DNA from: Coxiellaceae bacterium
GTDB taxonomy: Bacteria; Pseudomonadota; Gammaproteobacteria; Coxiellales; Coxiellaceae
Direction of reading: 5' to 3'
DNA length: 30,938 nt
Assembly (NCBI GenBank): GCA_041746415.1
Contig: JBGTHB010000062.1
Coordinates: 1-30,938 of the forward strand
A program made the position numbers and the translations under genes. Under the pieces are notes generated by a model. It saw only the letters and a list, made by a program, of their open reading frames with translations, did no database searches and was not told the DNA's origin. Shown here one piece after another: positions 11,740 to 28,261 of this stretch; positions within the stretch are counted from its first letter, which is position 1, and every line of letters starts with the position of its first letter.

Positions 11740-12258
11740 ATGCAAAAAATCTTGTTTACGATTGATGAAGTTAAGCATGACGAAAAATTCACGCATACCG
11801 TGAATAGTTTTATTTTATGCGCTGGGGAAAAATCAATGCAGCTATGGTCGGATAATAAAGCCATGACACTTAATAATGGTGACACCATTCGCTATCAGCA
11901 ATATTTTCTTACTGTGCACATTATTAATGAACGCAATCAAGCAGTGACGCAACAAAAACTAAATTGGCTAAGTCCACTGCAAACCGATTTAAATCACCAA
12001 ACTCGACAATTAAGCCATCCCTTTTCTCATACAGCGACAGATCCATTCGATCCCCTTGCCTTTTTAGCGCCAGCAACTCAAGCGCCGGATATTTTCTCGC
12101 CGGCAATTTCGCTTGCACATGAGCCTGTGTCTTATCGTGCACCGGAGGCCATACAAAAAGCCACCGAATACGCTAACAAACCTAAGCTGCTTGAGCGTAT
12201 CAAACAAACCAGTAAAAAAATTTGGCGAACCACCAAGCCCGGAGTAAATCAATGGTGA
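11740..12258 (+). CDS. Hypothetical Pro-rich protein immediately upstream of tssJ; possible degenerate FHA-like N-terminus
   Basis: The 172-aa ORF has a C-terminal half rich in Pro, Ala and Ser. The N-terminal ~60 aa end in LNNGDTIRYQQYFLTV, which weakly resembles the last strands of an FHA domain. The GR/SxxH FHA signatures are absent, so this is only a guess. It overlaps the tssJ start by 7 bp. Confidence 0.4.
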   Translation: MQKILFTIDEVKHDEKFTHTVNSFILCAGEKSMQLWSDNKAMTLNNGDTIRYQQYFLTVHIINERNQAVTQQKLNWLSPLQTDLNHQTRQLSHPFSHTATDPFDPLAFLAPATQAPDIFSPAISLAHEPVSYRAPEAIQKATEYANKPKLLERIKQTSKKIWRTTKPGVNQW

Positions 12259-12701
12259 AATTATGGCAGACACTGCTGCTGACATTATTGCTATGTGCAT
12301 GTTCGCACGGTGCAAGACAAGCGAATTTAGCCGTAACCACAGCGCACTATCTTAATCCTGATGTGTCTGGTCGGCCTGCACCGATAGTAGTATCAATTTA
12401 TCAACTTAAATTTGCCAATCGTTTTAGTCAAACAGATTACCAACAATTAAATGATAACGCCGCCAACCTTCTAGGCGATAATTTAATTGACCGACAAGAT
12501 ATTGAAATTAGACCAGGCGAACACCGCACGGTTCATATTGATCTTGCCCAAGACACAGAATTTATCGGTTTAGTCGCTCATTATCGTAATATTAATGCAG
12601 CAAAATGGCGTGCGGTTATAAGCGCCCCGCCCAAAACAAGCGCTCTTAATTTAAATATCGAGCTTGAAGCGCAAGCGCTAAGCGTTGAACGAGTACGATA
12701 A
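12252..12701 (+). CDS. tssJ: Type VI secretion outer-membrane lipoprotein TssJ
   Basis: The start was moved to MVKLWQTLLLTLLLCACS, which carries a lipobox (LCAC|S); a GGAG ribosome-binding site lies 7 nt upstream. The SciN/VasD-family motif PIVVSIYQLK is present. The gene lies upstream of tssK-tssL-tssM. Confidence 0.8.
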   Translation: MVKLWQTLLLTLLLCACSHGARQANLAVTTAHYLNPDVSGRPAPIVVSIYQLKFANRFSQTDYQQLNDNAANLLGDNLIDRQDIEIRPGEHRTVHIDLAQDTEFIGLVAHYRNINAAKWRAVISAPPKTSALNLNIELEAQALSVERVR

Positions 12702-12748
12702 TAACGATAAAAATAATGTGTAAATTTAAAAAAGTTGCGGAACTATAA

Positions 12749-14050
12749 ATGCAAAGTAATCGAGTCAACTGGGCTGAAGGGTTGTTTCTAAAACCTCAAC
12801 ACTTTCAACAACAAGAACGCTACTTTGAATATTCCATTACACAAAAATATCACCAACTCGGTGATCATTTGTGGGGAATCAAGACGCTGTCTTTTAATCA
12901 AGAACTATTGCAACAAGGTAAATTGGCTTTAGACTCAGCAAGCGGCTTTTTTGCCGATGGAACGGGCTTTAATTTTCCAAATTGCGATTGCAGCCCAGAT
13001 GCCATCACCATCCCAAATAATACTAAAAACCAAATAGTTTACCTTGCTTTGCCGGTAATCAAACATAATGAATACCATCAACGCTACTCCCACGCCCACC
13101 TCAACCTACTCGATCAATCCACCAACGATTTTGATTGTGATGATATAGAAATAGCAAAAATTAAACCCATACTAAAACTTTCAAGCCACGAGCTAGACAA
13201 TTATCTGGTTATTCCACTAGCTAAAATTACAGAATGTCGCACTGATAACAGCATTCAACTTGATTCAAATTTTATTCCAACAGCCATTCAAACTCAGGCC
13301 TTTGCAAAGTTAGCCCAAATGGCAGTTGAAATATTGGAGTTGCTCAATCATCGCTCGCATGCTTTATCGCAACGCCTAACCGACGTAGAACAGTCAGCTA
13401 CTGCTGAAATCACTGACTTCATGCTGCTGCAATTAGTGAATCGCTATGAAGCAGTATTTTTCGATTTAACGAATACTGCTGTTTTACACCCGCGGCAATT
13501 GTATCAAGCGTTAATACAATTGCTCAGTGAGCTAAGCACATTTACAAATGACAAACGTCGCGTCGCAAACATGTGTGTTTATAATCATCAAGATCTTGCC
13601 ACCACTTTTATGCCCTTAATGCACCAGCTACGTCATGAACTCAGTACTGTATTGGTTCAATCTGCCGTAGCAATAACACTTGAACCACGCGGTGCTGGCA
13701 TCTTTGTCGGCATTATAAATGAAAAAAGTTTACTAGATGATTGTCACTTTATATTAGCAATTAGCGCAGATATACCTAGCGAAACATTACGTAAAACATT
13801 GCCATCGCAAATAAAAATCGCCCCTGTTGAACAACTGCACAATTTAGTAATGCGTTCTTTACCTGGTATTGAAATTGAAAATTTAGCTATTGCACCCAGA
13901 CAAATTCCCTATCACAGCAATTTTTTATATTTTCAAATTAATAAACAACACTCACTATGGCAATCGTTGCCACAATCTGCCGCATTGGCTTTACATTTAA
14001 CGGGATTGTTACCTGGATTGAAACTGGAATTATGGGCAGTACGAGGATGA
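12749..14050 (+). CDS. tssK: Type VI secretion baseplate protein TssK
   Basis: The N-terminus MQSNRVNWAEGLFLKPQHFQQQERY matches the canonical TssK N-terminus. The length is 433 aa. Confidence 0.9.
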   Translation: MQSNRVNWAEGLFLKPQHFQQQERYFEYSITQKYHQLGDHLWGIKTLSFNQELLQQGKLALDSASGFFADGTGFNFPNCDCSPDAITIPNNTKNQIVYLALPVIKHNEYHQRYSHAHLNLLDQSTNDFDCDDIEIAKIKPILKLSSHELDNYLVIPLAKITECRTDNSIQLDSNFIPTAIQTQAFAKLAQMAVEILELLNHRSHALSQRLTDVEQSATAEITDFMLLQLVNRYEAVFFDLTNTAVLHPRQLYQALIQLLSELSTFTNDKRRVANMCVYNHQDLATTFMPLMHQLRHELSTVLVQSAVAITLEPRGAGIFVGIINEKSLLDDCHFILAISADIPSETLRKTLPSQIKIAPVEQLHNLVMRSLPGIEIENLAIAPRQIPYHSNFLYFQINKQHSLWQSLPQSAALALHLTGLLPGLKLELWAVRG

Positions 14051-14787
14051 AGCATCAACACCACAATCCCTATCTGGCATGCACCCAAACGGTTATCACC
14101 TTATTATTGCAAGTTAAGCATCAAGCTCAGCAACCCGATTATCAAAAATTGCACGCTCAATTTATTAATGAGATCCAGCAAGTAGAAATTTATTTGCGCC
14201 AACAAGGAGTGAGCGAACGTCAGGCATTGTCTACCCGCTACTGCTTATGTGCAGTTACTGATGAGGCCATATTATCGACTAATTGGGGCGTACAATGCGG
14301 CTGGTCACAACAAACCTTATTGAGCTTGTTCCATCAAGAAACCTGGGGCGGTGAGCGCTTTTATTTAATCTTAGAAAATGCACTGAAAAACATGCGCGAT
14401 AACCTTGATTTTATCGAATTACTGTATGTTTTATTAAGCCTGGGCTTTGAAGGTAAATTTTATAATAAAGAAGCCGTTGTCCGCGAACAAATTCGTAACC
14501 GCTTATTCTACGCCATACGCCATGCCCGCGGTAAAGTGACCAGACAACTTTCAACACACGCTTATGATCCCGAACCATTTATGTTGCATCACCAAAACCG
14601 TCGCTCACTCAAAAAATTTGCTTACGTTTGTTTATCTCTATTTTTACTCATCAATCTCAGTTATAACTTGAGGTTAAATCACGTTGCCGATCCACTAACC
14701 CAACAATTAGCGCAATTAGCCCAAATTTCACCAGTAACCGTTTTTAGCCAATTTACCGACATTAAACGTACAAGGCCAAACTCATGA
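14047..14787 (+). CDS. tssL: Type VI secretion membrane protein TssL (DotU family)
   Basis: DotU core motifs are present: STRYCLCAVTDEAIL, LLSLFHQETWGGERFY and IELLYVLLSLGFEGKFYN, with a single C-terminal TM. The start was moved to the ATG at 14047, which overlaps the tssK stop (ATGA). Confidence 0.9.
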   Translation: MKHQHHNPYLACTQTVITLLLQVKHQAQQPDYQKLHAQFINEIQQVEIYLRQQGVSERQALSTRYCLCAVTDEAILSTNWGVQCGWSQQTLLSLFHQETWGGERFYLILENALKNMRDNLDFIELLYVLLSLGFEGKFYNKEAVVREQIRNRLFYAIRHARGKVTRQLSTHAYDPEPFMLHHQNRRSLKKFAYVCLSLFLLINLSYNLRLNHVADPLTQQLAQLAQISPVTVFSQFTDIKRTRPNS

Positions 14788-17700
14788 GACGTTACTGGGA
14801 TATCATTAAGCAGTTTTGCACTCATGTCGTCAGCATGATTAAACAATCCACTAAAAAAATATGGACAATTAGCCAACGCTACTACACCAAACAGAAATTA
14901 TTTGTTAGCGAAAAACGTCAATTTACTTCACTTCACAAACAACCCTGGTATTTTGTTTTAGGTGAATCACAGTCTGGACGTAGCCAATTAATCGCCCACA
15001 GCGGTTTTCACAGTGAAGCAAATCATTTGTTGAGTAAAGCTTGTGAATTTTACAAAGCGCTTTTTCCTCGTTTAAGTTGGGATTTTAATGCCAATACCTG
15101 CTTTATCACTAACAAAGACGAAACTTTTTTTGAAGATGAAGCCAACATCAAACCTTGGTTAAAAACCCTGGCGAGGCACCGCCGCCAACAACCATTAAAC
15201 GGCGTTATTATGACGATTGATATCAATGAGTGGTTGTATCAAGATAAATCTCAACAGCAGCGATTAATTCAACGTTACGCTAAATTGTTGATTCGTTTAA
15301 GTCAGCAATTAAAAGAACAAATACCGGTTTATTTGGTCTGGACTAAAATGGACAGACTAATTGGTTTTAATGAATTTTTCCATGAACTGTCTCGCGAAGA
15401 GCTGGAGCAAATTTGGGGTCTCACTTTTCCAATTACAAAAATTACTGATCTCACGTTGCTACGACAGTTTCTACATCAAGAATACCCTAAGTTAGTGCAA
15501 CGATTACAAGAACGTGTTATTCATCTATTAGACAGTGAAAAATCAGCCGCGGCTCGCGAATTAATTTATGCTTTCCCGCAACAAATTCAATTATTAGCGC
15601 AACCCATTGCTGATTTTATCCACCAGCTGATTAGCGCGCTGCCGCAGTTTAATTTGATTCATTTACGGGGATTTTATTTTACTAGCGCCTCCCAAACGGG
15701 CCAACAGCATAATTTGCTATTGCACAGCATTGCCAATGAATTTTCACTGGTGCCGATTGCACCGACTGTTTCAACGCTCAATCAAGAATGTTATTTTATT
15801 CGCAATTTATTCGAACAACTCATTTATCCTGAAAGCAGAATAATGGGATTCAGCCATCAAACTCGTAAACGCAAGCAGTACACTTATCAAAGCGCGTGGC
15901 TAGTTATTCCGCTATTATTAATATACGGTATTTGGCAAACAGCAATCAGCTACCACTATGAAATCCATTACTTAACTGCTCTTAAATCAAAGATTGCCTA
16001 CTATAAGCACTTACGCAATAATTTGGATTTTCACAATCCCGATATCACCACTACGTTACCGCTGCTACAGCAAGCACATCGTATATTGAACCCAATTCAT
16101 CATTATGCGCATTTTGGCATGAATTTATTGTTTAATTCACATCAATTACGCACTCAAGCAAACAATTTAATGCAAAGAACATTGGCCAGTTTTTTTGTGC
16201 CTCGTATCGCCTTAACACTAGAAAATCAATTACACCATAATAAGATGAACATTAATTTTCGCTATGCGACATTAAAAGGCTATTTGGTTTTTAACCCACA
16301 AAACCAAGCACCTACCAATAATCTAATTGCACCAATGAAAATTTATTGGGCGCAACACTTTAAAGGCAAACCGAATACGTTGTTAGCGCTTAATTATTAC
16401 CTCAATCAAGCGGTACTGTTTCCTCAAACCGCCTTACCGATTGATCACGATCTGGTTAGTCAAAATCGCGATCTGTTACAGCAAGTGATTCCGTCTCAAC
16501 GAGCCTATGTATTATTGCAATTTGAAAGCCGCGCTAGTGCACTCAACGATATTAATTTTGCGCAATTGACTGGCAGCGCTATTGACAGTGTTTTTGTCAA
16601 CAGCACCACATTACCAAAAATTCCTGCGTTTTATACCCTAGCTGGTTTCCAACATATCTTTTCATATCAACTGAACAATATTGCTAATGAAGTAGCCAAC
16701 GATAATCACGAAATTGGCTTAAGCAGCGTAACCTATGGTTCACCTTCTGCAACAGATATTAAAGATCAAGTTAAAACACAATATAGCCAAGATTACCTAA
16801 ATCAATGGGACAACGCGCTTAAGGCGCTTGACGTCAAGTCTTTTGACACTTATGACAATGCGGAAAAAATCTTAACGCTGTTAGGCAGCAATCAATCGCC
16901 TTTATTTCATGTGTTGAACATTGTTAAGCGTAATACCACAACCATTGACGATGACAGCATCCAAGTGAAGCAACATTTTTACGCCTTGAATCATTTTTAC
17001 GACCATTCTCAAGCTGAAAAATTGAGCGCTAGTTTCACTGCCATCAAAACCTATTTGCAAACTATCCAAAATCAAAATGATCCTAATAAAGCTGCCTTTG
17101 ATGCTGCTAAACAGTATTTTATGGGCGCCAAAAATCCAATTTATCAATTACAGCAATTAGCCAAAGATGCACCTGCTCCAGCTAAACGTTGGCTAGAAAC
17201 CATTGCCGATAACACGCTGGCATTAATTTTCGCGCACGCGCGCGATTATATTAATGCGCAATGGCAAAAGGACATCATTCTTCCATACGGCAACGAGGTG
17301 ATGGGGCACTATCCTATTAACATTCACGCTGTAGCGCAGCTCGATCTTAATACCTTCCAAACACTTTTTGCACCAAAAGGTAAATTGGATCAATTTTTTG
17401 TGCAGTTCATCCAACCCTTTGTCAATTCAGACGGGCCAAATTGGCAATATTACCAACGTGAAAATGGTTCTATTGAATTATCTACTGCTACGCTGGTTTT
17501 ATTTGAGCGCGCTAAACGCATTCAAAACGATTTCTTTAATAACACATCAGGCACGCCAAGTCTGGAATTAACAATTGAGCCACGCTTGCTTGATACTAAT
17601 TTAATGCGCTTTAATTTAGCTATTGGTAATCAAAATTTAGCGTACGCTCACGGTCCGCGCCAAAGCCTTGCCCTACATTGGCCACTGGGTATATTGAATC

Positions 17701-17945
17701 AAAGCGTAACGCTTTCCATGATAGATTTTAATCATAACCCCGATGAATTCCACAGCAGCGGTCCCTGGTCATTGTTTAAATTATTTGATCGAGGACAGTG
17801 GCAACCGGGCAACAACCCAAATAATTACAACTTAATACTTTATTTTAACCACCGTGTTGTAGAGCTAACCATCAACAGCACATTGCCTTTAGCTACATTG
17901 AAATTAACTGATCTCGAACATTTTAACTTGGTGAGTACTTTATGA
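14784..17945 (+). CDS. tssM: Type VI secretion membrane protein TssM (IcmF-like); atypical, with no N-terminal TM hairpin and a degenerate Walker A
   Basis: The 1053-aa protein lies 3' of tssL with an ATGA overlap. A P-loop-like segment PWYFVLGESQSGRSQL (nt 14961-14984) is followed by a central TM (WLVIPLLLIYGIWQTAI) and a long periplasmic C-terminal region, which together give IcmF-like architecture. Confidence 0.75.
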   Translation: MRRYWDIIKQFCTHVVSMIKQSTKKIWTISQRYYTKQKLFVSEKRQFTSLHKQPWYFVLGESQSGRSQLIAHSGFHSEANHLLSKACEFYKALFPRLSWDFNANTCFITNKDETFFEDEANIKPWLKTLARHRRQQPLNGVIMTIDINEWLYQDKSQQQRLIQRYAKLLIRLSQQLKEQIPVYLVWTKMDRLIGFNEFFHELSREELEQIWGLTFPITKITDLTLLRQFLHQEYPKLVQRLQERVIHLLDSEKSAAARELIYAFPQQIQLLAQPIADFIHQLISALPQFNLIHLRGFYFTSASQTGQQHNLLLHSIANEFSLVPIAPTVSTLNQECYFIRNLFEQLIYPESRIMGFSHQTRKRKQYTYQSAWLVIPLLLIYGIWQTAISYHYEIHYLTALKSKIAYYKHLRNNLDFHNPDITTTLPLLQQAHRILNPIHHYAHFGMNLLFNSHQLRTQANNLMQRTLASFFVPRIALTLENQLHHNKMNINFRYATLKGYLVFNPQNQAPTNNLIAPMKIYWAQHFKGKPNTLLALNYYLNQAVLFPQTALPIDHDLVSQNRDLLQQVIPSQRAYVLLQFESRASALNDINFAQLTGSAIDSVFVNSTTLPKIPAFYTLAGFQHIFSYQLNNIANEVANDNHEIGLSSVTYGSPSATDIKDQVKTQYSQDYLNQWDNALKALDVKSFDTYDNAEKILTLLGSNQSPLFHVLNIVKRNTTTIDDDSIQVKQHFYALNHFYDHSQAEKLSASFTAIKTYLQTIQNQNDPNKAAFDAAKQYFMGAKNPIYQLQQLAKDAPAPAKRWLETIADNTLALIFAHARDYINAQWQKDIILPYGNEVMGHYPINIHAVAQLDLNTFQTLFAPKGKLDQFFVQFIQPFVNSDGPNWQYYQRENGSIELSTATLVLFERAKRIQNDFFNNTSGTPSLELTIEPRLLDTNLMRFNLAIGNQNLAYAHGPRQSLALHWPLGILNQSVTLSMIDFNHNPDEFHSSGPWSLFKLFDRGQWQPGNNPNNYNLILYFNHRVVELTINSTLPLATLKLTDLEHFNLVSTL

Positions 17946-18928
17946 ATGCAAATGCCGACACATTAAAAACGGCCAATCAAGATATACGCCAATCCCCTAA
18001 TTTGGCCACACTTTATTTTGATACCAAGAGCCAGCGCAATGATGCTAAACGCATGGAGCGTGAAGCGGTGTTAAATGAAACATCACTGCAACTTGCTTTA
18101 CCACTTTGGCAGGCACTTGAATCTCAATGCGACACGATCTTAGCTGAACACAGCAAAGATATTGAAGTGTGCTGCTGGCTAATCGAAGCCCGTGTGCGTA
18201 CCGACGGTATAACTGGTCTTATTACCGCGTGGCAGTATACAACTGATTTACTGCGTACCGTTGGCTTAGCCTGTCAACCTAATAACCCACTGGACTATTT
18301 AGCCAAATTGCATGAAGGTGGCAACACCAATTCGTTAAGCGGTTATTTACGATTCCTACCCATCACCGACAATACTGCTATTAGCGCCAACTTTCAGGCT
18401 TGGCAATATGAGGCCAAGAACAATGATGCTCAGCTTGCCCATGCGCTTACTGCTGCTATCCAGTCTTCGCCTTTGTCGTTCTATCAACAACAGTTACAAT
18501 TTATCGCAACAGCAAAAACCACATTTACCACGTTGTGTGAAGTTGCCCACGCTCTGGATAACAAACAAGCGCCTAGTAAAACGCATTTTTTAGATGCCTT
18601 AAATCAACTTGAACTTATATTCAGCGATATCGTGCAACAGCATTTCCCGCAAACACGAGCTGAAATAAAAACACAAACAAGTCCCCGCCTTGCTTCAAGC
18701 ACAAATTCACCATCCACTACTAGCGCTTTAACACGTGAAACAGCACTGCAACAAATAGAAACGTTGTCGCATTTTTTTGAGCAAACTGAACCGCACTCAC
18801 CTTTAATTTTTTTGCTTAAGCGTTGCGTTGAATGGGGTAAGTTACCCTTACCTAAACTACTTGAACAAATGATTACGGACGACACCACACGTGACAAATT
18901 GTGTAATTTAATCGGCATAAAATTATAA
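17942..18928 (+). CDS. tssA: Type VI secretion protein TssA (ImpA N-terminal domain family)
   Basis: The ImpA_N-like segment SKDIEVCCWLIEARVRTDGITGLITAWQYTTDLL follows the SKDL-V--WL-EA-pattern of that family. The gene overlaps the tssM stop (ATGA) and lies immediately upstream of tssB and tssC. Confidence 0.65.
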   Translation: MNANADTLKTANQDIRQSPNLATLYFDTKSQRNDAKRMEREAVLNETSLQLALPLWQALESQCDTILAEHSKDIEVCCWLIEARVRTDGITGLITAWQYTTDLLRTVGLACQPNNPLDYLAKLHEGGNTNSLSGYLRFLPITDNTAISANFQAWQYEAKNNDAQLAHALTAAIQSSPLSFYQQQLQFIATAKTTFTTLCEVAHALDNKQAPSKTHFLDALNQLELIFSDIVQQHFPQTRAEIKTQTSPRLASSTNSPSTTSALTRETALQQIETLSHFFEQTEPHSPLIFLLKRCVEWGKLPLPKLLEQMITDDTTRDKLCNLIGIKL

Positions 18929-18984
18929 CTACTCAAAAAATAATGAACATAATCTACAAAACGACAATGAACTAGGAGGCCACT

Positions 18985-19506
18985 ATGATCGAAAGCATAC
19001 ATAATAAACTTGAACGCGTACGCAAACCCCGCGTCCACATTAAATATGAAGTGGAAACAAATGATGGGGTAGCGCAGCATGAACTGCCTTTTGTGGTCGG
19101 CGTTATGGGCGATTTCTCAATGGATAACACACAAAACCGTAAACCTTTGCGTGAACGTAAATTTATTGAAATTGATCGCGATAATTTTGATAACGTCATG
19201 CAACGCATGAACCCACAGCTGTCCATCCGCGTAAAAAATGTTTTCACCACAGCAGAACAAGAACTACCGGTAACCTTGTCGTTTGCCTCCCTTGATGATT
19301 TTTCGCCAGAAAACCTCACTGACGCCATACCAATGCTTAAAAAATTAAAAGCGCTGCGACATATGCTGCGTGATTTACTCAGCCAAAGCGATCGTTCACC
19401 ACAACTTGAAGCACTACTTGAACAAGCCCTAAAAGAACCTGAAGTGTTGGCAAAACTCAGTGCTGAACTCAGCAACCAACCTAATTACACTGCGGAGTCT
19501 GTATAA
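18985..19506 (+). CDS. tssB: Type VI secretion sheath small subunit TssB (VipA)
   Basis: The translation KLERVRKPRVHIKYEVETNDGVAQHELPFVVGVMGDFS is the canonical TssB sequence. An AGGAGG ribosome-binding site lies at 18965-18970. Confidence 0.92.
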   Translation: MIESIHNKLERVRKPRVHIKYEVETNDGVAQHELPFVVGVMGDFSMDNTQNRKPLRERKFIEIDRDNFDNVMQRMNPQLSIRVKNVFTTAEQELPVTLSFASLDDFSPENLTDAIPMLKKLKALRHMLRDLLSQSDRSPQLEALLEQALKEPEVLAKLSAELSNQPNYTAESV

Positions 19507-20963
19507 TGAGCACAGTTATTGATAAATCAACCTTATTAAAATCCGAAACAAATATTTTTAATTTAGCGTTACAAGCCAATGATCATAGAGACACCCACAA
19601 AACGACACAGCTTTTAACAGCGTTAGCAAAAAATATAACAGATGGTATGCTCAGTTGGGATAAAAGTGTGATTAATTCCATTAATCGCGCCATTGCGAAA
19701 TTAGATAATCTAATTTCGCAGCAGCTGGCTGAGGTTATGCACCATCCGCGTTTTAGTGCATTGGAAGGTTCATGGCGCGGCATGAATTATTTAGTTAATC
19801 ATTCTGAAACCTCGTCTTTACTTAAAATAAAACTCATGGATGTTAAAAAATCAGAACTACAATTGGATTTTGAACGTGCTTTAGAATTTGACCAAAGCAG
19901 CTTGTTTAAAAAAATATATGAGTCTGAGTTTGGTATGCCAGGCGGCGAACCTTATGGTGTTTTAATTGGTGATTATACTTTTACTCAACATCCACAAGAC
20001 ATTAACCTACTTCAAGGACTAGCCGGTGTTGCTGCCGCCAGTTTTTGTCCCTTCCTATCCAGTGCTGATGCGCAATTATTTGGTTTCAGTGACTGGAGCA
20101 AGTTATCCCAACCACGCGATTTAAAGAAAATTTTTGAAAGCACAGATTACATTAAATGGCGTCAATTTCGTGAAACTGAAGACTCTTGTTTTATTACCTT
20201 AACCCTGCCACGTGTGTTAGCACGTCTTCCTTATGGTGAAGCAACAAAACCAGTTGCTGAGTTTAATTATGAAGAACAACAGCCACATAGTCATGGTTAT
20301 TGTTGGATGAACGCCGCCTATCCGCTTGCTACTAAAATCACGGATGCTTTTGCTAAAACGGGTTGGACAACAGCCATTCGTGGTGCAGAAGGAGGAGGTA
20401 AAGTTGAAGATTTGCCATTGCATATTTTTACTAGCGACGATGGCGATTTAGACGCGCAATGCCCAACGGAAGTTGGCATTACCGATCGGCGCGAAGCCGA
20501 ACTTTCTCAACTGGGTTTTTTACCTTTGTGTCATTATAAAAACACAGACTACGCTGTCTATTTTGGTGCAGAAACGCTGCACAAAGCAAAACAGTATGAT
20601 CGTGTGGATGCTACCGAAAACGCACGTATCGCAGCTCGCCTACCTTATGTATTAGCTACCTCTCGATTTGCACATTATTTAAAAATTATGGCGCGGGATA
20701 AAATCGGTTCATATCAAGAAGCCAGTGACTGTGAAATTTGGCTAAACCATTGGATTTTAAATTTTGTAAACAATAACGCTTCGACTAAGCAAGATTTAAA
20801 AGCGAAGTACCCATTGGCAGATGCCAAAATTGAAGTGAAACCTATTCCAGGAAAGTCCGGGGCATATCACGCTATTGCCTGGCTGCGCCCATGGCTACAA
20901 ATGGAAGAGCTAACGGCTTCATTACGCCTGGTAACAAGCATTCCCAAACGAGGTGGTCAATAG
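19506..20963 (+). CDS. tssC: Type VI secretion sheath large subunit TssC (VipB)
   Basis: The 485-aa protein carries PGGEPYGVLIGDY, LPRVLARLPYG and FAHYLKIMARDKIGSY. It overlaps the tssB stop by 1 nt. Confidence 0.92.
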   Translation: MSTVIDKSTLLKSETNIFNLALQANDHRDTHKTTQLLTALAKNITDGMLSWDKSVINSINRAIAKLDNLISQQLAEVMHHPRFSALEGSWRGMNYLVNHSETSSLLKIKLMDVKKSELQLDFERALEFDQSSLFKKIYESEFGMPGGEPYGVLIGDYTFTQHPQDINLLQGLAGVAAASFCPFLSSADAQLFGFSDWSKLSQPRDLKKIFESTDYIKWRQFRETEDSCFITLTLPRVLARLPYGEATKPVAEFNYEEQQPHSHGYCWMNAAYPLATKITDAFAKTGWTTAIRGAEGGGKVEDLPLHIFTSDDGDLDAQCPTEVGITDRREAELSQLGFLPLCHYKNTDYAVYFGAETLHKAKQYDRVDATENARIAARLPYVLATSRFAHYLKIMARDKIGSYQEASDCEIWLNHWILNFVNNNASTKQDLKAKYPLADAKIEVKPIPGKSGAYHAIAWLRPWLQMEELTASLRLVTSIPKRGGQ

Positions 20964-20968
20964 TCATC

Positions 20969-22054
20969 ATGCCAAGCAGCCATGCGGTCCAAAACCATAA
21001 GCAACGCTGGATTATACTAAAGCTTATTAACCTATGTGATGAAAAAATTCATCAAACGCTTGCGGATATTGAAAATAATGCCAACTGGCAGCAGCTTGCT
21101 GCCAGTTGGCAAGGTTTGCAATGGCTGGTTGACACAACGCAACTGTCTACCAAACAAACCAAAATTAAATTACTCAATATCAAACCCCATGAAGCACTGA
21201 CTGATTTAGCGCTGAGCGATGATTTGACTAACAGTCATTTATACGAATTAATTTATCATCGCGAATTGGATTTTCCAGGTGGCGAACCCTTTGGGATTAT
21301 CATAGCGGATTTTTACAATGAAATTCGCTTGCTGCAATTGCTTGCTTATTTGGCGCAAGAAGCATTAACCATATTGTTAACTTCAACAACCCATCCCGAT
21401 AGCAATGATCATCTCACTTGGTCAGCGTTTGTCTGCGTGAGCTACCCTGCTGTGCGCATCAACACCCAGCTTTTTGTTAGCAGCAGTTATGCAGTCGCTA
21501 TTATTATTGCTTTAACTTTCCAACAAACAGGCTGGTTTTCACAAATCACCGATCATGCAATTAAAGCGCCTTTTATTGAGCCTGCGCATTATGAATTTAT
21601 TGATTCATTTACACCTGATACGAAGGTGTATTTGAGTGACAAACAAACTGATCAGCTAGCAACAAAAGGAGTGATTGGCATCAAATCATTGCATCTCAGT
21701 CATCAATTGGCTTTTTTCCATGCTGTTAGCGCAACACAGCAACAACCGTTAACACATCTTTTATGCGGCTGTCGTTTTGCACATTACTTAAAAGCGATTT
21801 TGCGCAACAAAACCGGTAATTTCACCACCACCGACCAATGCCAGCAATTATTACAAAAATGGTTATTAGGTTATTGCGCACAAAGTTCAGATTTGTCATC
21901 CGATTTAGCAGCACGCTACCCTTTAAAATCCGCTCATGTCACAGTAAAAGCGAACCAAACCAATCGCAGCGAATTTATTTGCCAGTTGTCATTAGTGCCT
22001 CATTGGCAACTTAACCAATTGGAAACCAAACTGCGTATTTTAATTAAGGTATAA
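20969..22054 (+). CDS. Truncated, divergent TssC paralog (TssC-like sheath-domain protein) sitting where hcp usually lies
   Basis: Several segments align with the upstream TssC. SWQGLQWLV matches SWRGMNYLV. FPGGEPFGIIIADFY matches MPGGEPYGVLIGDYTF. CRFAHYLKAILRNKTGNF matches SRFAHYLKIMARDKIGSY. The C-terminus ARYPLKSAHVTVKA matches AKYPLADAKIEVKP. About 100 residues are missing relative to TssC. The start was set at the ATG at 20969, 5 nt after the tssC stop. Confidence 0.7.
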   Translation: MPSSHAVQNHKQRWIILKLINLCDEKIHQTLADIENNANWQQLAASWQGLQWLVDTTQLSTKQTKIKLLNIKPHEALTDLALSDDLTNSHLYELIYHRELDFPGGEPFGIIIADFYNEIRLLQLLAYLAQEALTILLTSTTHPDSNDHLTWSAFVCVSYPAVRINTQLFVSSSYAVAIIIALTFQQTGWFSQITDHAIKAPFIEPAHYEFIDSFTPDTKVYLSDKQTDQLATKGVIGIKSLHLSHQLAFFHAVSATQQQPLTHLLCGCRFAHYLKAILRNKTGNFTTTDQCQQLLQKWLLGYCAQSSDLSSDLAARYPLKSAHVTVKANQTNRSEFICQLSLVPHWQLNQLETKLRILIKV

Positions 22055-22055
22055 T

Positions 22056-22481
22056 ATGACTAATTCAACGCATCAACAATTAATTAACGACATTAAAATA
22101 GCACTTGAAGAGTTACTCAACACACGCAAACACTATTATTTTAATATTAAACGCTGGCCGCTTGTGACCAAATCCATTTTAGGCTATGGCTGTTGTGACT
22201 TTTCTAAAATGATCAATGGTTCGCAACTTACTTTTGCCACTGTGGAATTTGAAATAAAACAAGCAATCGAGCAGTTTGAGCCACGGGTTCAACACGTGTC
22301 GGTGCATATTGAATACAGCGAGCAACAACAGCTTTTCCTTACTATCACGGTTGAATTAAAAAACACGCAAAACATAGCGCTTTATTTACAATCCAATGCT
22401 CTTAACACCGCGCACTCAATAAAATTAAAAGGTCAGGAAAATGCTGCAAACGATTTTGGACTATTATCAAACCGAGCTTGA
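22056..22481 (+). CDS. tssE: Type VI secretion baseplate protein TssE (gp25-like)
   Basis: The 141-aa protein has LEELLNTRK and IKQAIEQFEPRVQHVSV, which correspond to the TssE LLNTR-G and FEPRL motifs. Confidence 0.75.
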   Translation: MTNSTHQQLINDIKIALEELLNTRKHYYFNIKRWPLVTKSILGYGCCDFSKMINGSQLTFATVEFEIKQAIEQFEPRVQHVSVHIEYSEQQQLFLTITVELKNTQNIALYLQSNALNTAHSIKLKGQENAANDFGLLSNRA

Positions 22482-24069
22482 AGCATTGTATGAACAAGCA
22501 CTTTATTTTGCTAAAGCGCATCCACAATACGCCAGCCAACTTGGTATATTGCCTTTTGCCATAAAAAACCCTGAGTTGGAACGCTTATTACAAGGAACCG
22601 CTTTTTTAACAGCGCGCATACAAAAAAAAATAGATGGCGATTTTAAACAAATAAGTCATGTCTTGTTGACAGCAATAATGCCAGCATTGTTACAGCACTC
22701 ACCAGCAGCGGGTATTGCGTGCTATCAACCTAATAGTGACCCCAGCGACAACTTCATCCTAGAGAAATCAACACCTTTTCATGCCACCACTACCACCGGT
22801 GACACAGTAATTTTCACAAACCCACAGCCAGTTCATATCAGCAAAGCTAAAATAAAAAGCACCCTCTATAAAAGAACCACCCACGGGGCGGAGCTGGTTA
22901 TTAAGCTCAGCTGTGTAGATAACAACACTCTGAATTTTTACCTTAATACCAACAATCAATCTGCTCACGCTGTCATAACCGCACTTTTGCAAAGTCGCAT
23001 TAGCACTACTCATCAGCCTCAGGAGCCGCACTTACAGCTTTATGCGTTAGCAGCACAAAATTGCTGGCTTGCTCAACCCGCTAATCTTTTATTTATTTAC
23101 CAAATTATACGTGAATTTTTTCACTACCCTCTTAAAAGACAATTCTTCAGCTTAACTAATCTTTGCGTATACAATGAAGCGGTAGACATTACGTTTTATT
23201 TTAAAAAATTTGATACGCAGTTTGAACGCCTAATCCATACCAATTTATTGCAACTCAATTGCTTCCCGCTTATCAACCAATATTCAACTACATGCGAACC
23301 GATTAAGCTCAATCATGACGTAGCGCAACAAACTATTCAACTTGACAATATCATTGCGATTGAAAATGTGACTGCCTATAAAAATGATGGTGAAATGATT
23401 AATGTTGCGCCGTTGTTGGAAAATCCTTCAAGTGCAACTGAGTTGTGCTATTACGCGCACTACAACACCGAGCTAAATAAAACTCAGCTAAGTTTTAACT
23501 CTAGCCAAGACTATGCGCAAATTGATTTACTGGAAGTGCAAGCCTTAAAAAGCAATCAAGAAGCGATTGAAACCATTTTAAATGATTCAGCAAATCTTGC
23601 TGCTCATGATGAAACTCAACTCGATAGCGCCGTCTTGTGTTGGCAAAGCCAACTCTACCCCGGTAGTTTCAACCAAATTAACCAGCAACATTATTGGCAA
23701 TTAATCGCGTTGTTAAATCAACCACTACAATACGCACCAGCCCATGCGGATGCTGTTTTAAGTCAACTAAAATTATTATTACGCGCACTGCATCCAGCCT
23801 CAGCATCAAAATTCTCCGGCTTAATTGATGACTTATCTCAACTGAGCATTAAATTGATTACGGGTCGATCACGTACAGCTGGCTTTTCGGCCGTGACTTA
23901 CGGTTACGAATTTAATTTACTAGTGGACACTGACGACGGCAATAAGTCGGAATTATCCTTGTTAGGCTTATTACTCTTTCATTATTTACAAGCCACTGTT
24001 GAAATGAACCGCTTTGTTATTTTAATTTTGCGCAACAAACAACATCAGGTATTGCACCAATGGCAATAG
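22441..24069 (+). CDS. tssF: Type VI secretion baseplate protein TssF
   Basis: The N-terminus MLQTILDYYQTELEALYEQALYFAKAHPQYASQLG...ELERLLQGTAFLTARIQKKIDGDF is the canonical TssF N-terminus. The protein is 542 aa and overlaps tssE by 41 nt. Confidence 0.85.
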   Translation: MLQTILDYYQTELEALYEQALYFAKAHPQYASQLGILPFAIKNPELERLLQGTAFLTARIQKKIDGDFKQISHVLLTAIMPALLQHSPAAGIACYQPNSDPSDNFILEKSTPFHATTTTGDTVIFTNPQPVHISKAKIKSTLYKRTTHGAELVIKLSCVDNNTLNFYLNTNNQSAHAVITALLQSRISTTHQPQEPHLQLYALAAQNCWLAQPANLLFIYQIIREFFHYPLKRQFFSLTNLCVYNEAVDITFYFKKFDTQFERLIHTNLLQLNCFPLINQYSTTCEPIKLNHDVAQQTIQLDNIIAIENVTAYKNDGEMINVAPLLENPSSATELCYYAHYNTELNKTQLSFNSSQDYAQIDLLEVQALKSNQEAIETILNDSANLAAHDETQLDSAVLCWQSQLYPGSFNQINQQHYWQLIALLNQPLQYAPAHADAVLSQLKLLLRALHPASASKFSGLIDDLSQLSIKLITGRSRTAGFSAVTYGYEFNLLVDTDDGNKSELSLLGLLLFHYLQATVEMNRFVILILRNKQHQVLHQWQ

Positions 24070-24869
24070 CGGATTTTTTTCATATAGTACATTCCTTGCA
24101 GCTAACCGCCACTAAACCGTTGCAGTTTGCTGCAGCACACTCAACTACCGTGAATTTAAATGACATTGATAAAATCACGGCCACTGCGGACGCGGTGTGC
24201 ATCCACATTAACTTTATGCAACTCTATGGTGTCTCTGGCATCATGCCTAATAACGACTTTGAAAAATTTCATGAATCAGCTCAGCAACGTGCGCCCGCCT
24301 TTGCTCAATTTACTCAACTGTTTCAGAATCACTTAACGCATTTACTCGTTAACGCTTGGCAATGCAATCAACCCACGCTGCAAATTAATCGTCTTAAGCG
24401 CACTCTAACTGAATGTTTTGATCTCAAAGATAACAACCTGGTGCCATACGTAAATTATATTCTGCGGCGACCGATTAGTACGTCCGCACTGCAACAATTG
24501 CTTAGCTCTCATTTAAGTTTGCCAGTGCGCATTAGTGAAAATAGTGGTAAATGGCTTGAAATAAATCAGGCAGAATACACACTGCTTGGTAAATCTTTTA
24601 ATAAGCTCGGTGCCACCAGTATGCTGGGAAAACGATTCTTTTCTCCCAGTGCCGCCGTGGGTATCGCTATTGGCCCATTAGATTACGCTAATTACTGTCA
24701 GCTCATTAAAGGCAAACAGCAACGTGCAGCTATTGAAAAAATGCTAGCGGCAGTGATGGATGCATGCGTTACAGCTCAGATAGCATTGCAATTACCTACA
24801 GCAGCACGTCCACCCTTACTATTAAGCAAAAACAGCCAGTTACAGCTTGGTTTTCATCTGTGGTTTTGA
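24060..24869 (+). CDS. tssG: Type VI secretion baseplate protein TssG (short form)
   Basis: VCIHINFMQLYGVSGIMPNNDFEKF...FAQFTQLFQNHLTHLLVNAWQ matches the TssG core. The protein is 269 aa and overlaps tssF by 10 nt. Confidence 0.7.
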   Translation: MAIADFFHIVHSLQLTATKPLQFAAAHSTTVNLNDIDKITATADAVCIHINFMQLYGVSGIMPNNDFEKFHESAQQRAPAFAQFTQLFQNHLTHLLVNAWQCNQPTLQINRLKRTLTECFDLKDNNLVPYVNYILRRPISTSALQQLLSSHLSLPVRISENSGKWLEINQAEYTLLGKSFNKLGATSMLGKRFFSPSAAVGIAIGPLDYANYCQLIKGKQQRAAIEKMLAAVMDACVTAQIALQLPTAARPPLLLSKNSQLQLGFHLWF

Positions 24870-25810
24870 ACACTAGCAGCTTCAGCGTTAACTTCATCAA
24901 ATTGTTTGCAACTCAAATTAGCTACAAACACGCTCAAAAGTGTGCTCAATAAAATATTCTTATTTTGTAAAATTACTGTCGCCAAAATTAAATTGACTAT
25001 TATGCGTATCGTAAACTGTACTGAATAACGCATTAAACGAGTTTGACCTAATAAAAAACTATCCAATTTTTTAGCTGGCAATAAATATTGTACTGCAAAA
25101 CTAATAGCAGCAAAAAATAGCAGAGTACCTTTAAACTGTTCTAGAAGTGCAAATAGATCTGTTTCCCAGTTTTCACCGCTAAACAGACATGACTCGGGGA
25201 ATGATTGGCAGTGATTAAAACTATTTGCAGCCTGTTCCAACTGGCTGTTGTTATAATCACGTTCTCGCAAATGACAAAGCAGATTGGGCAGGGTTACCTT
25301 ATTTATAAGATAATGGCTGTGGTTATAAACAGCCTTGCCATTATGTAATACAGGATATTTAGGGAAAGCTCCCATATTAGACGAATGAATCATATCGTGC
25401 ACAAACGAAAAATTGCTGTTGCACCAATTAATAATTTCTTCTTGGCTCTTGCCTAAAAAGGCATAATCAGTCTCATGATCTCTTTTAAGTTTAATAAATT
25501 GATCGCATACATCCTTAACCATATTTCTTCTAAAAAATAGTGAAAACCTCTCCTGGCTAAGCTTACCTTTAACACAGGATTGCAAATAGGGAGCGCCAAA
25601 ACCATGTAAGCTCAATATGGCATTTTTAAATTTCGCATCAACGAAAATATGTGCACCAGGTAAAAGATCGAACATAAAACAATTTCTATTTATCTCACAT
25701 TCAGCAAGACGACGCATACCGACAATAAAAGGCTTTAGTACACGCCTTAAATAAGCTCCGTCGGTCCAACTACCGAGGATAGCTTGTATTTCTTCTGACG
25801 ACATTCGCAT
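24854..25810 (-). CDS. Hypothetical protein of unknown function with a hydrophobic C-terminal region (2-3 predicted TM helices); convergent with tssG and overlapping it by 16 bp
   Basis: The 318-aa ORF shows no family signature I can recognise. The last ~90 aa are hydrophobic (LLFFAAISFAVQYLLP...IIVNLILATVILQ...LLSTLLSVFVANL). Confidence 0.5.
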   Translation of the reverse strand: MRMSSEEIQAILGSWTDGAYLRRVLKPFIVGMRRLAECEINRNCFMFDLLPGAHIFVDAKFKNAILSLHGFGAPYLQSCVKGKLSQERFSLFFRRNMVKDVCDQFIKLKRDHETDYAFLGKSQEEIINWCNSNFSFVHDMIHSSNMGAFPKYPVLHNGKAVYNHSHYLINKVTLPNLLCHLRERDYNNSQLEQAANSFNHCQSFPESCLFSGENWETDLFALLEQFKGTLLFFAAISFAVQYLLPAKKLDSFLLGQTRLMRYSVQFTIRIIVNLILATVILQNKNILLSTLLSVFVANLSCKQFDEVNAEAASVQNHR

Positions 25811-26766: not shown

Positions 26767-26920
26767 GTCTGATTCAATCCTTTGTTCAGGGTGCTAACTT
26801 TATTATATCTTTGGCATTATATCCTTGGGAAGTGACGCTTGCCAATTATTTGTTCGCAACTCGCATTTTTAATCACGAATAGTGTATTATCTCCCCCAAT
26901 TAAATCAAAAAGGATTGGCT

Positions 26921-28261
26921 ATGAAATTGTTGCGCTTCACCTTAATCCCATTGCTCCTCATTGTTTTGACTCCACCCTCTGCGATATTAATTTGGTATAC
27001 CAACACCACACTCGGCGGTTCGCTTTACGCCTTGTGGCAACAATTTTTGAGTAACGGGTTTATTTCAACGTTATACCATATTTGGTCACCGGTATTTTTT
27101 GGCTCAGCAAAAGCATGGGGCATTATTTTTATTTTCGCAGCAACACAACTGCTACTAATGCGGTTGGTGCCGGGCAAAAAAGAATATGGCCCAGTTACCC
27201 CTCAAGGCAACACACCGGTTTATAAAGCCAATGGTTTTACTTGTTTTGTGATCACAATTTCATTATTTGTCGTCACCAGTTTTGGCTTACACTGGTACTC
27301 ACCCGCCATTGTCTACAACAATTTTGGCGCAATTTTGGGTGCATTAAATTGTTTTAGTTTGTTGTTTTGTGTTGGTTTATATTTGAAGGGGCGCTTCAAA
27401 CCTTCAACTAGTGATGCTGGCATAACGGGCAATATTCTCTTTGATTACTACTGGGGCACAGAACTTTATCCTCGTGTTCTAGGCTGGGACATCAAACAGT
27501 TTACCAACTCACGCTTTGGCATGATGAGCTGGCCAATTATTATTTTGTCGTTCGCTGCCAAACAAGATCAGTTGTACGGTTTGAGCAATTCTATGTGGGT
27601 CGCGGTGGCCATCATGTTGGTTTATATCGGTAAATTCTTTTTATGGGAAATGGGCTACATGCGCTCACTGGATATCATGCACGACCGCGCTGGTTATTAT
27701 ATTTGCTGGGGTTGTTTAGTCTGGGTGCCTGCGGTTTACACTTCGCCGATTCTATATTTGGTCAATCATCCAATAGAGCTTAACGAACTCAGCGCGTTTT
27801 TAATTTTAATCGCTGGTATTAGCAGCGTACTTATTAATTTCTGGGCGGATAAACAGCGACTGCGAGTGCGCGCCACCAATGGCAACTGCACAGTTTGGCG
27901 CAAACCACCCGTGCTTATTAAGGCCAACTACACCACGGCAACAGGCGAGCAAAAACACAGTTTATTATTAGCTTCAGGTTGGTGGGGCGTGGCGCGGCAT
28001 TTTCATTATGTGCCAGAAATCCTCGGTGCTTTTTTTTGGACGTTACCCGCACTGTTTCATCATTTGTTACCCTGGTTTTATGTTATCTTTTTAACCGTAT
28101 TATTGTTGCATCGCTCACTCCGTGATGAACAACGCTGCCGCTTAAAATACGGCATTTATTGGCAGCAGTATTGTGAGAAAGTGCCGAATCGCTTGCTCCC
28201 AGTGATAATAACCCGTACCTTAAACCAACTGCTCTTTTTCTGGAAATCTTCAGTAAATTAA
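26921..28261 (+). CDS. Sterol reductase, ERG4/ERG24/DHCR7 family (eukaryotic-type delta-7 or delta-14 sterol reductase homolog)
   Basis: This is a polytopic membrane protein. Its C-terminal signature LLASGWWGVARHFHYVPEI...HLLPWFYVIFLTVLLLHRSLRDEQRCRLKYGIYWQQYCEKVPNRLLP aligns residue by residue with the DHCR7 and ERG24 signature (GxWGxxRHxxY...LLxHRxxRDxxRCxxKYGxxWxxYCxxVPYRIxP). The start was moved to MKLLRF, which has an AAGGA ribosome-binding site. Confidence 0.9.
   Translation: MKLLRFTLIPLLLIVLTPPSAILIWYTNTTLGGSLYALWQQFLSNGFISTLYHIWSPVFFGSAKAWGIIFIFAATQLLLMRLVPGKKEYGPVTPQGNTPVYKANGFTCFVITISLFVVTSFGLHWYSPAIVYNNFGAILGALNCFSLLFCVGLYLKGRFKPSTSDAGITGNILFDYYWGTELYPRVLGWDIKQFTNSRFGMMSWPIIILSFAAKQDQLYGLSNSMWVAVAIMLVYIGKFFLWEMGYMRSLDIMHDRAGYYICWGCLVWVPAVYTSPILYLVNHPIELNELSAFLILIAGISSVLINFWADKQRLRVRATNGNCTVWRKPPVLIKANYTTATGEQKHSLLLASGWWGVARHFHYVPEILGAFFWTLPALFHHLLPWFYVIFLTVLLLHRSLRDEQRCRLKYGIYWQQYCEKVPNRLLPVIITRTLNQLLFFWKSSVN

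Follow-up and report, generated by a model that had tools for sequence, protein, structure and literature searches.

The textbook topology of TssM, the IcmF-family protein in type VI secretion systems (T6SSs), comprises three transmembrane (TM) helices (PMC3346141, PMC9972734), and the usual description is of a three-TM protein with an NTPase that, in at least one model organism, powers assembly or gates it. Its interaction with TssL is independent of ATP binding or hydrolysis (PMC3346141, PMC9972734), and Walker A substitutions in the Edwardsiella tarda homologue EvpO are cited in the same two papers as having no effect on secretion. TM counts vary across the family; according to Boyer et al. 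(2009), just 63% of the IcmF homologues of T6SSs have three TM helices (PMC2660368). The IcmF protein of Legionella pneumophila, which is part of the type IVB (Dot/Icm) secretion system (T4BSS), has one predicted TM helix (residues 317-338) and a Ras-like cytoplasmic domain (bioRxiv 10.1101/2023.03.22.533729). We found no explicit description in the literature of a T6SS lineage with a one-TM TssM, a negative that is weak evidence because our coverage was incomplete. Here, we analyzed the tssM gene of a complete NCBI contig (JBGTHB010000062.1; 30,938 bases, 41% GC; referred to throughout as the window), the product of which lacks the N-terminal hairpin of TM1 and TM2 as well as both Walker motifs. 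The protein is probably a functional TssM of a divergent T6SS subtype, from which the hairpin has been deleted and in which the cytoplasmic domain would serve as a hydrolysis-dead pseudo-GTPase scaffold.

Family, topology, and start of the window TssM

An earlier sequence-only reading had assigned this open reading frame (ORF) to TssM, and the assignment is borne out by model score, domain content, and operon position. The protein scores 626.7 bits on the TssM model TIGR03348 (curated cut-off 388.15), carries the Pfam domains IcmF-related_N, IcmF-related, IcmF_helical, and IcmF_C in order and above their gathering scores, and is encoded in the tssJ/K/L neighborhood of a compact T6SS operon (positions 11740-24869, plus strand) with the order J-K-L-M-A-B-C-C'-E-F-G, in which all 12 genes are intact and closely packed. 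Three textbook features are missing: the full set of TM helices, of which only TM3 is present; the Walker A motif GxxxxGK[ST]; and the Walker B motif hhhhDxxG. The [N/T]KxD motif is present, as TKMD. By sequence, the protein also has the domains through which TssM would bind TssJ (C-terminal domain) and TssL, TssK, and TssG (cytoplasmic domain). The window protein is thus a variant TssM.

That it is instead an IcmF of T4BSS type, a Dot/Icm accessory protein that natively has a single TM helix, is extremely improbable. Such a protein would share the one-TM topology, the IcmF_IVB profile places its PWY/P-loop at ~25-28 of 973 positions (bioRxiv 10.1101/2023.03.22.533729), the organism appears to be Legionellales-like, and orphan dotU-icmF pairs with hairpin-less IcmF proteins occur at two of the related loci described below; however, the window protein reaches only 309.7 bits on IcmF_IVB (NF038226), far below the cut-off of 1000, and canonical three-TM TssMs of Pseudomonas score alike on that model (317 and 304 bits). 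Moreover, the gene is flanked by tssL and tssA within a full T6SS operon, none of the window ORFs that were scanned was identified as a Dot/Icm gene, and the neighbor-joining (NJ) tree presented below does not place the protein inside the T4BSS IcmF clade.

The sequence-only reading had described a protein without the N-terminal hairpin, with a single central TM segment followed by a periplasmic C-terminal region, and we recovered each of these features. TM segments were called from Kyte-Doolittle hydropathy (19-residue window), comparison with homologues, and an AlphaFold helix at residues 358-404. The only hydropathy peak of at least 1.6 lies at residues 370-392 (value 1.63); over residues 1-80 the maximum is 0.32, and no hydrophobic segment stands ahead of the P-loop. 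Canonical TssMs match TIGR03348 from profile position 1-5, whereas the window TssM matches it from position 100, so that the ~100 profile positions holding both missing TM helices have no counterpart. The TM segment is flanked by four Lys and Arg residues before it and three after it, a balance that is insufficient alone to fix the orientation. The periplasmic region is covered by the Pfam IcmF domains and, in a sequence search of the PDB, the window TssM matched only the periplasmic part of TssM from enteroaggregative Escherichia coli (EAEC; 6IXH/6HS7); no solved structure matched the cytoplasmic domain in that search.

Comparison with the nearest relative found in a word-index search (P0002; 1134 residues, 34% identity, from the metagenome-assembled genome [MAG] GCA_021773195.1) locates the missing segment. 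At its N-terminus P0002 has two segments of strong hydrophobicity, its P-loop reads GSGGAGKS, and the window TssM aligns to P0002 from about residue 80 (WDIIKQF versus WKAIKQF at P0002 residues 83-89). Judged by sequence comparison, the window TssM begins just after the TM2 position, and its residues 2-52 are homologous to the post-TM2 segment of three-TM relatives. The upstream neighbor is complete: TssL of the window and the full-length TssL of the P0002 locus (L001) are homologous to their final residues (ISPVTVFSQFTDIKRTRPNS versus EPPVTMFSQLLDRSIVPHSFD), which means that the missing part consists of the first part of tssM and a short intergenic spacer, with no portion of tssL lost or fused.

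The start codon of tssM is genuine. This had been argued from the ATGA in which the tssM start and the tssL stop overlap, and the argument holds because four independent contigs (L003, L009, L010, and L011) carry hairpin-less orthologues whose start overlaps tssL by the same 4 nucleotides. In the tssM frame, a stop codon lies seven codons upstream of the ATG, and translation of the three frames upstream of 14784 gave only tssL coding sequence and stop-rich frames, none encoding hydrophobic helices. An upstream in-frame start and a frameshifted hairpin were both rejected on the basis of this translation. An artefact of assembly, sequencing, or gene calling, in the form of a lost 5' segment or a frameshift, might be entertained for a contig that probably comes from a MAG and whose exact TssM sequence is absent from the gene-position index, but its probability is close to nil: in addition to the empty upstream frames, tssL continues without a break as far as the ATGA, its tail is homologous to that of its full-length relative, and the same junction occurs in contigs from different samples and assemblers.

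It is also very improbable that the gene has been split, with the TM1-TM2 hairpin made as a separate small protein and supplied in trans. Nothing direct speaks for such an arrangement, although an uncharacterized 318-residue ORF with two hydrophobic segments lies beside tssG (24854-25810, minus strand). A six-frame scan found no ORF with at least two hydrophobic segments on the coding strand of the cluster, nor a small one of that kind beside the cluster on this strand, and no small gene recurs next to tssM in the gene maps of related hairpin-less loci (in which the hydropathy of small genes was not run).

Nucleotide motifs and the cytoplasmic domain

The replacement of the Walker A Lys by Arg, giving GESQSGRS, was confirmed by alignment at the position where the sequence-only reading had placed it (14961-14984). 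The Arg codon is CGT, and because at least two bases would have to change to give either Lys codon, a single-base error does not account for it. The alignments also revealed a loss that had been overlooked, in that the Walker B (G3) motif is missing altogether; where the consensus has AVLIDTAGR, the window protein has CFI------TNKDE in the MAFFT alignment. Other elements of the domain remain. The Ser that follows the substituted Arg is kept, and Asp 190 of the TKMD motif does not vary across alignment A1, with conservation of at least 90% in the clade alignment A2. An AlphaFold2 model of residues 1-405, computed from a 43-sequence alignment (mean predicted local distance difference test score [pLDDT] 88.9, predicted template modeling score 0.81), contains a helix at residues 2-52 (pLDDT 60-70), an alpha/beta core, and the helix 358-404 with the TM segment. 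The cytoplasmic domain retains a predicted small-GTPase (Ras-like) fold from which the G1 and G3 catalytic residues have been lost.

With another residue in place of the Walker A Lys, and with neither the Walker B Asp nor the DxxG loop left, nucleotide hydrolysis by this domain is very unlikely, as far as its residues can tell. The sequence-only reading had gone further and proposed an NTP-binding-deficient, singly anchored variant. Single anchoring stands, but “binding-deficient” is too strong, given that the P-loop Ser, the TKxD motif, and the fold are all kept and the domain may still bind nucleotide; a domain that binds nucleotide but is catalytically dead is as likely as one that does not bind it.

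A scaffold-only, singly anchored TssM is the most economical reading of these features. The first 70-80 codons of tssM, encoding TM1, the loop, and TM2, would have been deleted in the lineage, and the joint loss of both helices would be topologically neutral, leaving the G domain cytoplasmic and the C-terminal two-thirds of the protein periplasmic. The cytoplasmic Ras-like domain would then serve only as a scaffold on which TssL and the baseplate dock, the periplasmic part could still build the TssJ-TssM channel, and the T6SS lineage would no longer use nucleotide switching. Hold on the inner membrane would be provided by TM3, by the partner TssL, and perhaps by the basic N-terminal helix, which has a net charge of +10 and is amphipathic over residues 1-25 (hydrophobic moment ~0.5-0.58); this helix may rest along the surface of the membrane or be packed onto TssL.

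Hairpin-less relatives and their clade

How unusual the window TssM appears depends on the depth of the search. Hydrophobic segments are present at the N-terminus of all 114 homologues found with the word index, and wherever the P-loop pattern was found among them, its Walker A Lys is kept. That result alone would make the window look singular, but it was overturned by an exhaustive HMMER search of 1.84 billion representatives, which returned 6,188 homologues. Among the best 150, which we examined, 27 have no hydrophobic segment before the P-loop, which lies at residue 20-94. A further search, based on the clade alignment A2, gave the identifiers of the first search again and nothing new, and a scan of the genome collection with the window protein gave a distant Massilia TssM as its only match and no close relative.

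For ten hairpin-less genes, we inspected the gene map or the DNA. The T6SS clusters that hold seven of them follow the gene order of the window, and four of the seven have the 4-nucleotide tssL/tssM overlap. The overlap is an ATGA in L003/L004 (protein P0143; cluster ?-J-K-L-M-A-B-C), in L009 (P0125) and L010 (P0127), both of the same order, and in L011 (P0218), where the contig ends at tssK and leaves K-L-M-A-B-C. L005 (P0121), with that order as well, has a 14-nucleotide overlap, and the P0136 contig (?-J-K-L-M-A-B-C-C'-E-F-G-ClpV) has a 4-nucleotide gap in its gene map and reproduces the order of the window down to the second tssC. L008 (P0256) belongs to a T6SS of more canonical type, with a 146-nucleotide stop-rich gap. 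The remaining loci, L006 (P0170) and L007 (P0176), are orphan dotU-icmF pairs whose two genes overlap, the latter beside a TrbI/DotG-like gene and of T4BSS type. All nine hairpin-less proteins that were scanned pass the TssM cut-off, fail the IcmF_IVB cut-off, and match TIGR03348 only from profile position 74-104.

Two side observations concern T4BSS-type genes at these loci. The IcmF-family proteins of the orphan pairs (L006, 7166-11144; L007, 7157-11201), which pass the TssM cut-off, score only 420-463 bits on the T4BSS IcmF model and probably represent divergent, T4BSS-associated members of the IcmF family missed by the curated model. On the 2.17-Mb contig of L003, a T4BSS DotI/IcmL-family protein is encoded at 1242-1739, ~8 kb from the T6SS cluster, and this organism appears to have both a Dot/Icm-type system and the T6SS subtype described here.

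In an NJ tree built from the 970 alignment columns downstream of the hairpin (100 bootstraps), the window falls in a clade of 30 representatives with 99% support, made up of 11 one-TM and 19 three-TM proteins that are interspersed. Support inside the clade is weak (6-33% along the path to the window), such that one hairpin loss is indistinguishable from many. The sequence-only reading was correct that the window encodes a real variant, but with 27 cases among the best 150 homologues and 11 of 30 in its own clade the protein is no singular oddity; its architecture is ordinary within a clade that has so far gone undescribed. Hairpin-less proteins are enriched in the clade relative to the remaining best hits (11/30 versus 16/113; Fisher P = 0.008, a test that ignores phylogeny).

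Motif decay is wider than hairpin loss. Across the clade, GxxxxGK[ST] is found in six of 30 members, a GK pair in 23, and DxxG in none; the usual P-loop forms are GKK, GKN, GKQ, and GKR. Four three-TM TssMs that fall outside the clade (P0153, P0164, P0197, and P0240) share the SGRS form of the window, so the Arg substitution is recurrent and motif decay is not tied to loss of the hairpin. Conversely, G1 and G3 are still canonical in those hairpin-less proteins that are T4BSS-like, and any link between the two kinds of loss must be loose. The whole clade, three-TM members included, has a degenerate G domain, and hairpin loss and motif decay were not one linked event. An order of events in which the G domain decayed to a pseudo-GTPase clade-wide and the hairpin was then discarded repeatedly, in Legionellales-like and other uncultured bacteria, is a tentative suggestion that we regard as rather doubtful.

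Six hairpin-less TssMs of the clade (P0121, P0125, P0127, P0136, P0143, and P0218) resemble the window protein most closely, with the same gene order, a start just after the TM2 position, degenerate G1 and G3 motifs and, for the most part, the same 4-nucleotide overlap with tssL. They differ in sequence (25-34% identity), and most of them keep the Walker A Lys as GKK, GKN, or GKS; relative to them, the Lys-to-Arg change and the lost Walker B acidic residue place the window among the more extreme states. To our knowledge, none of the six has been studied so far.

These relatives also bear on whether the window holds a decaying, non-functional T6SS remnant of a host-restricted bacterium, with tssM a pseudogene at an early stage, still free of stop codons. 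We consider this unlikely. Legionellales symbionts are reported to carry partial T6SSs (bioRxiv 10.64898/2026.04.11.717937), the protein has lost both Walker motifs, TssF (542 residues), TssG (269 residues), and TssA (328 residues) are shorter than profiles or relatives, and hcp, vgrG, and clpV are not on the contig. However, the 12 genes are all open and translationally coupled, a 1053-codon frame would stay free of stops by chance with a probability of only ~1e-28 at its base composition (39% GC), and residues outside the catalytic motifs are still conserved. The hairpin-less design is conserved at 25-34% identity in clusters with hcp, vgrG, or clpV nearby, which argues for long-term selection on this architecture. 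In related clusters these genes adjoin the operon directly: hcp in L003, clpV in L005, and hcp with vgrG in L010.

Several points nevertheless weigh against a functional, scaffold-only TssM in the window. The hydrophobicity of TM3 is only moderate (1.63), the closest relative of the word-index search shares only 34% identity with the protein, and hcp, vgrG, and clpV are absent from the whole 30.9-kb contig. In Agrobacterium tumefaciens, Hcp secretion needs both Walker motifs (PMC3346141), and a TssM without them could be inactive in some contexts. Finally, a P-loop with Arg in place of Lys that still has its Ser, together with the conserved TKxD motif, may bind nucleotide, and “pure scaffold” may be too strong a term.

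The operon, its surroundings, and comparison with known systems

The features of tssM and the genes of the operon are collected in Table 1.

Table 1. Features of the window TssM gene and genes of the T6SS operon (window coordinates)
Feature	Position	Strand	Evidence
tssM, hairpin-less variant, 1053 residues	14784-17945	+	TIGR03348 and four Pfam domains
ATGA overlap of tssM start codon and tssL stop codon	14784-14787	+	Sequence reading
N-terminal basic helix, residues 2-52	14787-14939	+	AlphaFold helix and alignment
Degenerate Walker A/G1, GESQSGRS (Lys to Arg), residues 60-67	14961-14984	+	Sequence and alignment
Strand equivalent to Walker B/G3 (CFITN), without Asp and DxxG loop	15099-15113	+	MAFFT alignments; AlphaFold strand 106-110
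G4-like motif TKMD, retained, residues 187-190	15342-15353	+	Alignments A1 and A2
Sole TM segment, residues 370-392, equivalent to TM3 of canonical TssM	15891-15959	+	Hydropathy; AlphaFold helix 358-404
Periplasmic region	15960-17942	+	Pfam; match to EAEC TssM periplasmic domain (6IXH/6HS7)
IcmF_C domain, putatively TssJ-binding (from domain type)	17571-17879	+	Pfam
172-residue gene, first of cluster, unannotatable	11740-12258	+	
tssJ lipoprotein	12222-12701	+	Pfam T6SS-SciN
tssK	12749-14050	+	Pfam T6SS_VasE, 430 bits
tssL, DotU family, single C-terminal TM	13957-14787	+	Pfam DotU, 169 bits
Short tssA-like gene, ImpA_N only	17942-18928	+	Pfam
tssB	18985-19506	+	Domain scan
tssC	19506-20963	+	Domain scan
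Shorter tssC paralogue	20891-22054	+	Pfam VipB, VipB_2
tssE	22056-22481	+	Domain scan
tssF	22441-24069	+	Domain scan
tssG	24060-24869	+	Domain scan

Several genes of the operon deserve comment. As listed, the tssL ORF opens within the 3' end of tssK with a hydrophobic stretch (13957-14050); because the DotU profile match begins at residue 37-38, the true start is probably an ATG near 14038 or 14053. The 172-residue product of the first gene has no Pfam or NCBIfam match, is weakly similar by BLASTP (E 0.002-0.004) to products of pre-tssJ genes in L001 and L005, with which it shares an “NGDTI” motif, and is possibly a conserved accessory protein. The tssC paralogue directly after tssC is 26% identical to TssC at the protein level, with internal deletions, and related clusters likewise have an additional VipB-like gene (L003, 21345-22568, minus strand, 407 residues; P0136 contig, 455 residues). 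This T6SS subtype seems typically to have its large sheath subunit in duplicate, a trait of which we know no description.

The 318-residue minus-strand ORF already mentioned is convergent with tssG, whose 3' end it overlaps by 16 nucleotides. It has no Pfam match, its two hydrophobic segments lie near the C-terminus, and it could encode an effector/immunity-type membrane protein or be unrelated. The cluster is flanked by the housekeeping genes mnmA and mfd; among named matches, Mfd is closest to those of Coxiella burnetii (55%) and Legionella micdadei (53%), the closest overall being a metagenomic protein (64%). Downstream, at 26882-28261 (plus strand), lies a eukaryote-like homologue of ERG4/ERG24 sterol reductases (Pfam, 226 bits). 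ERG4/ERG24-type genes occur in Coxiella and Legionella, and the gene fits a Legionellales-like, eukaryote-associated source. We infer that the window derives from an uncultured, Legionellales-like gammaproteobacterium.

The existence of a conserved one-TM, motif-less lineage indicates that there is no universal requirement for the hairpin or for hydrolysis. If the hairpin was indeed discarded repeatedly in a clade with a decayed G domain, it would be no structural necessity but an accessory module, linking changes that nucleotide drives in the cytoplasmic domain to the membrane complex, and the minimal working TssM would consist of one TM helix and the periplasmic channel, a design that T4BSS IcmF also has, apparently through independent evolution. 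Such proteins bear on the disagreement between the results from A. tumefaciens and E. tarda and would offer a natural minimal TssM for structural work. They also carry a warning for annotation, in that a short TssM gene overlapping tssL, with its start ~55-65 residues ahead of the P-loop, is no mis-called start. In practice the impact is modest, since single-TM IcmF is known from Dot/Icm systems and variable TM counts have been noted in bulk since 2009 (PMC2660368).

Among described systems, the T4BSS IcmF of L. pneumophila (NF038226) is like the window TssM in having a single predicted TM helix after a cytoplasmic Ras-like domain, with only ~25 residues ahead of its P-loop, and a gene directly after dotU/tssL. 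It conserves Mg2+- and GDP-binding residues that the window protein has lost (bioRxiv 10.1101/2023.03.22.533729), and is set apart by the score of the window on its model (310 bits against the 1000-bit cut-off) and by genetic context, the window having a T6SS operon and no Dot/Icm surroundings. The shared single-TM topology looks convergent, because canonical TssMs are equally close to IcmF_IVB. We also considered the clade of the window as the specific source of T4BSS IcmF; with 317 and 304 bits for the Pseudomonas TssMs against 310 for the window, the idea is rejected for now.

Canonical TssMs (A. tumefaciens ImpL/TssM, EAEC Sci-1, and Vibrio fischeri) share with the window protein the family score, the Pfam set, the tssJ/K/L neighborhood, TM3 with the periplasmic helical and C-terminal domains, and a Ras/GTPase-like cytoplasmic domain with TKxD. 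In contrast to them, the window protein is without the two N-terminal TM helices, has GESQSGRS in place of GxxxxGK[ST], and has the Walker B hhhhDxxG deleted. The precedent of EvpO and of other TssMs whose nucleotide motifs are reportedly not functional, as cited in PMC3346141 and PMC9972734, is like the window in suggesting that T6SS function does not always depend on TssM's Walker A; in that account the EvpO motif was present and was mutated experimentally, whereas in the window TssM the motifs are naturally absent.

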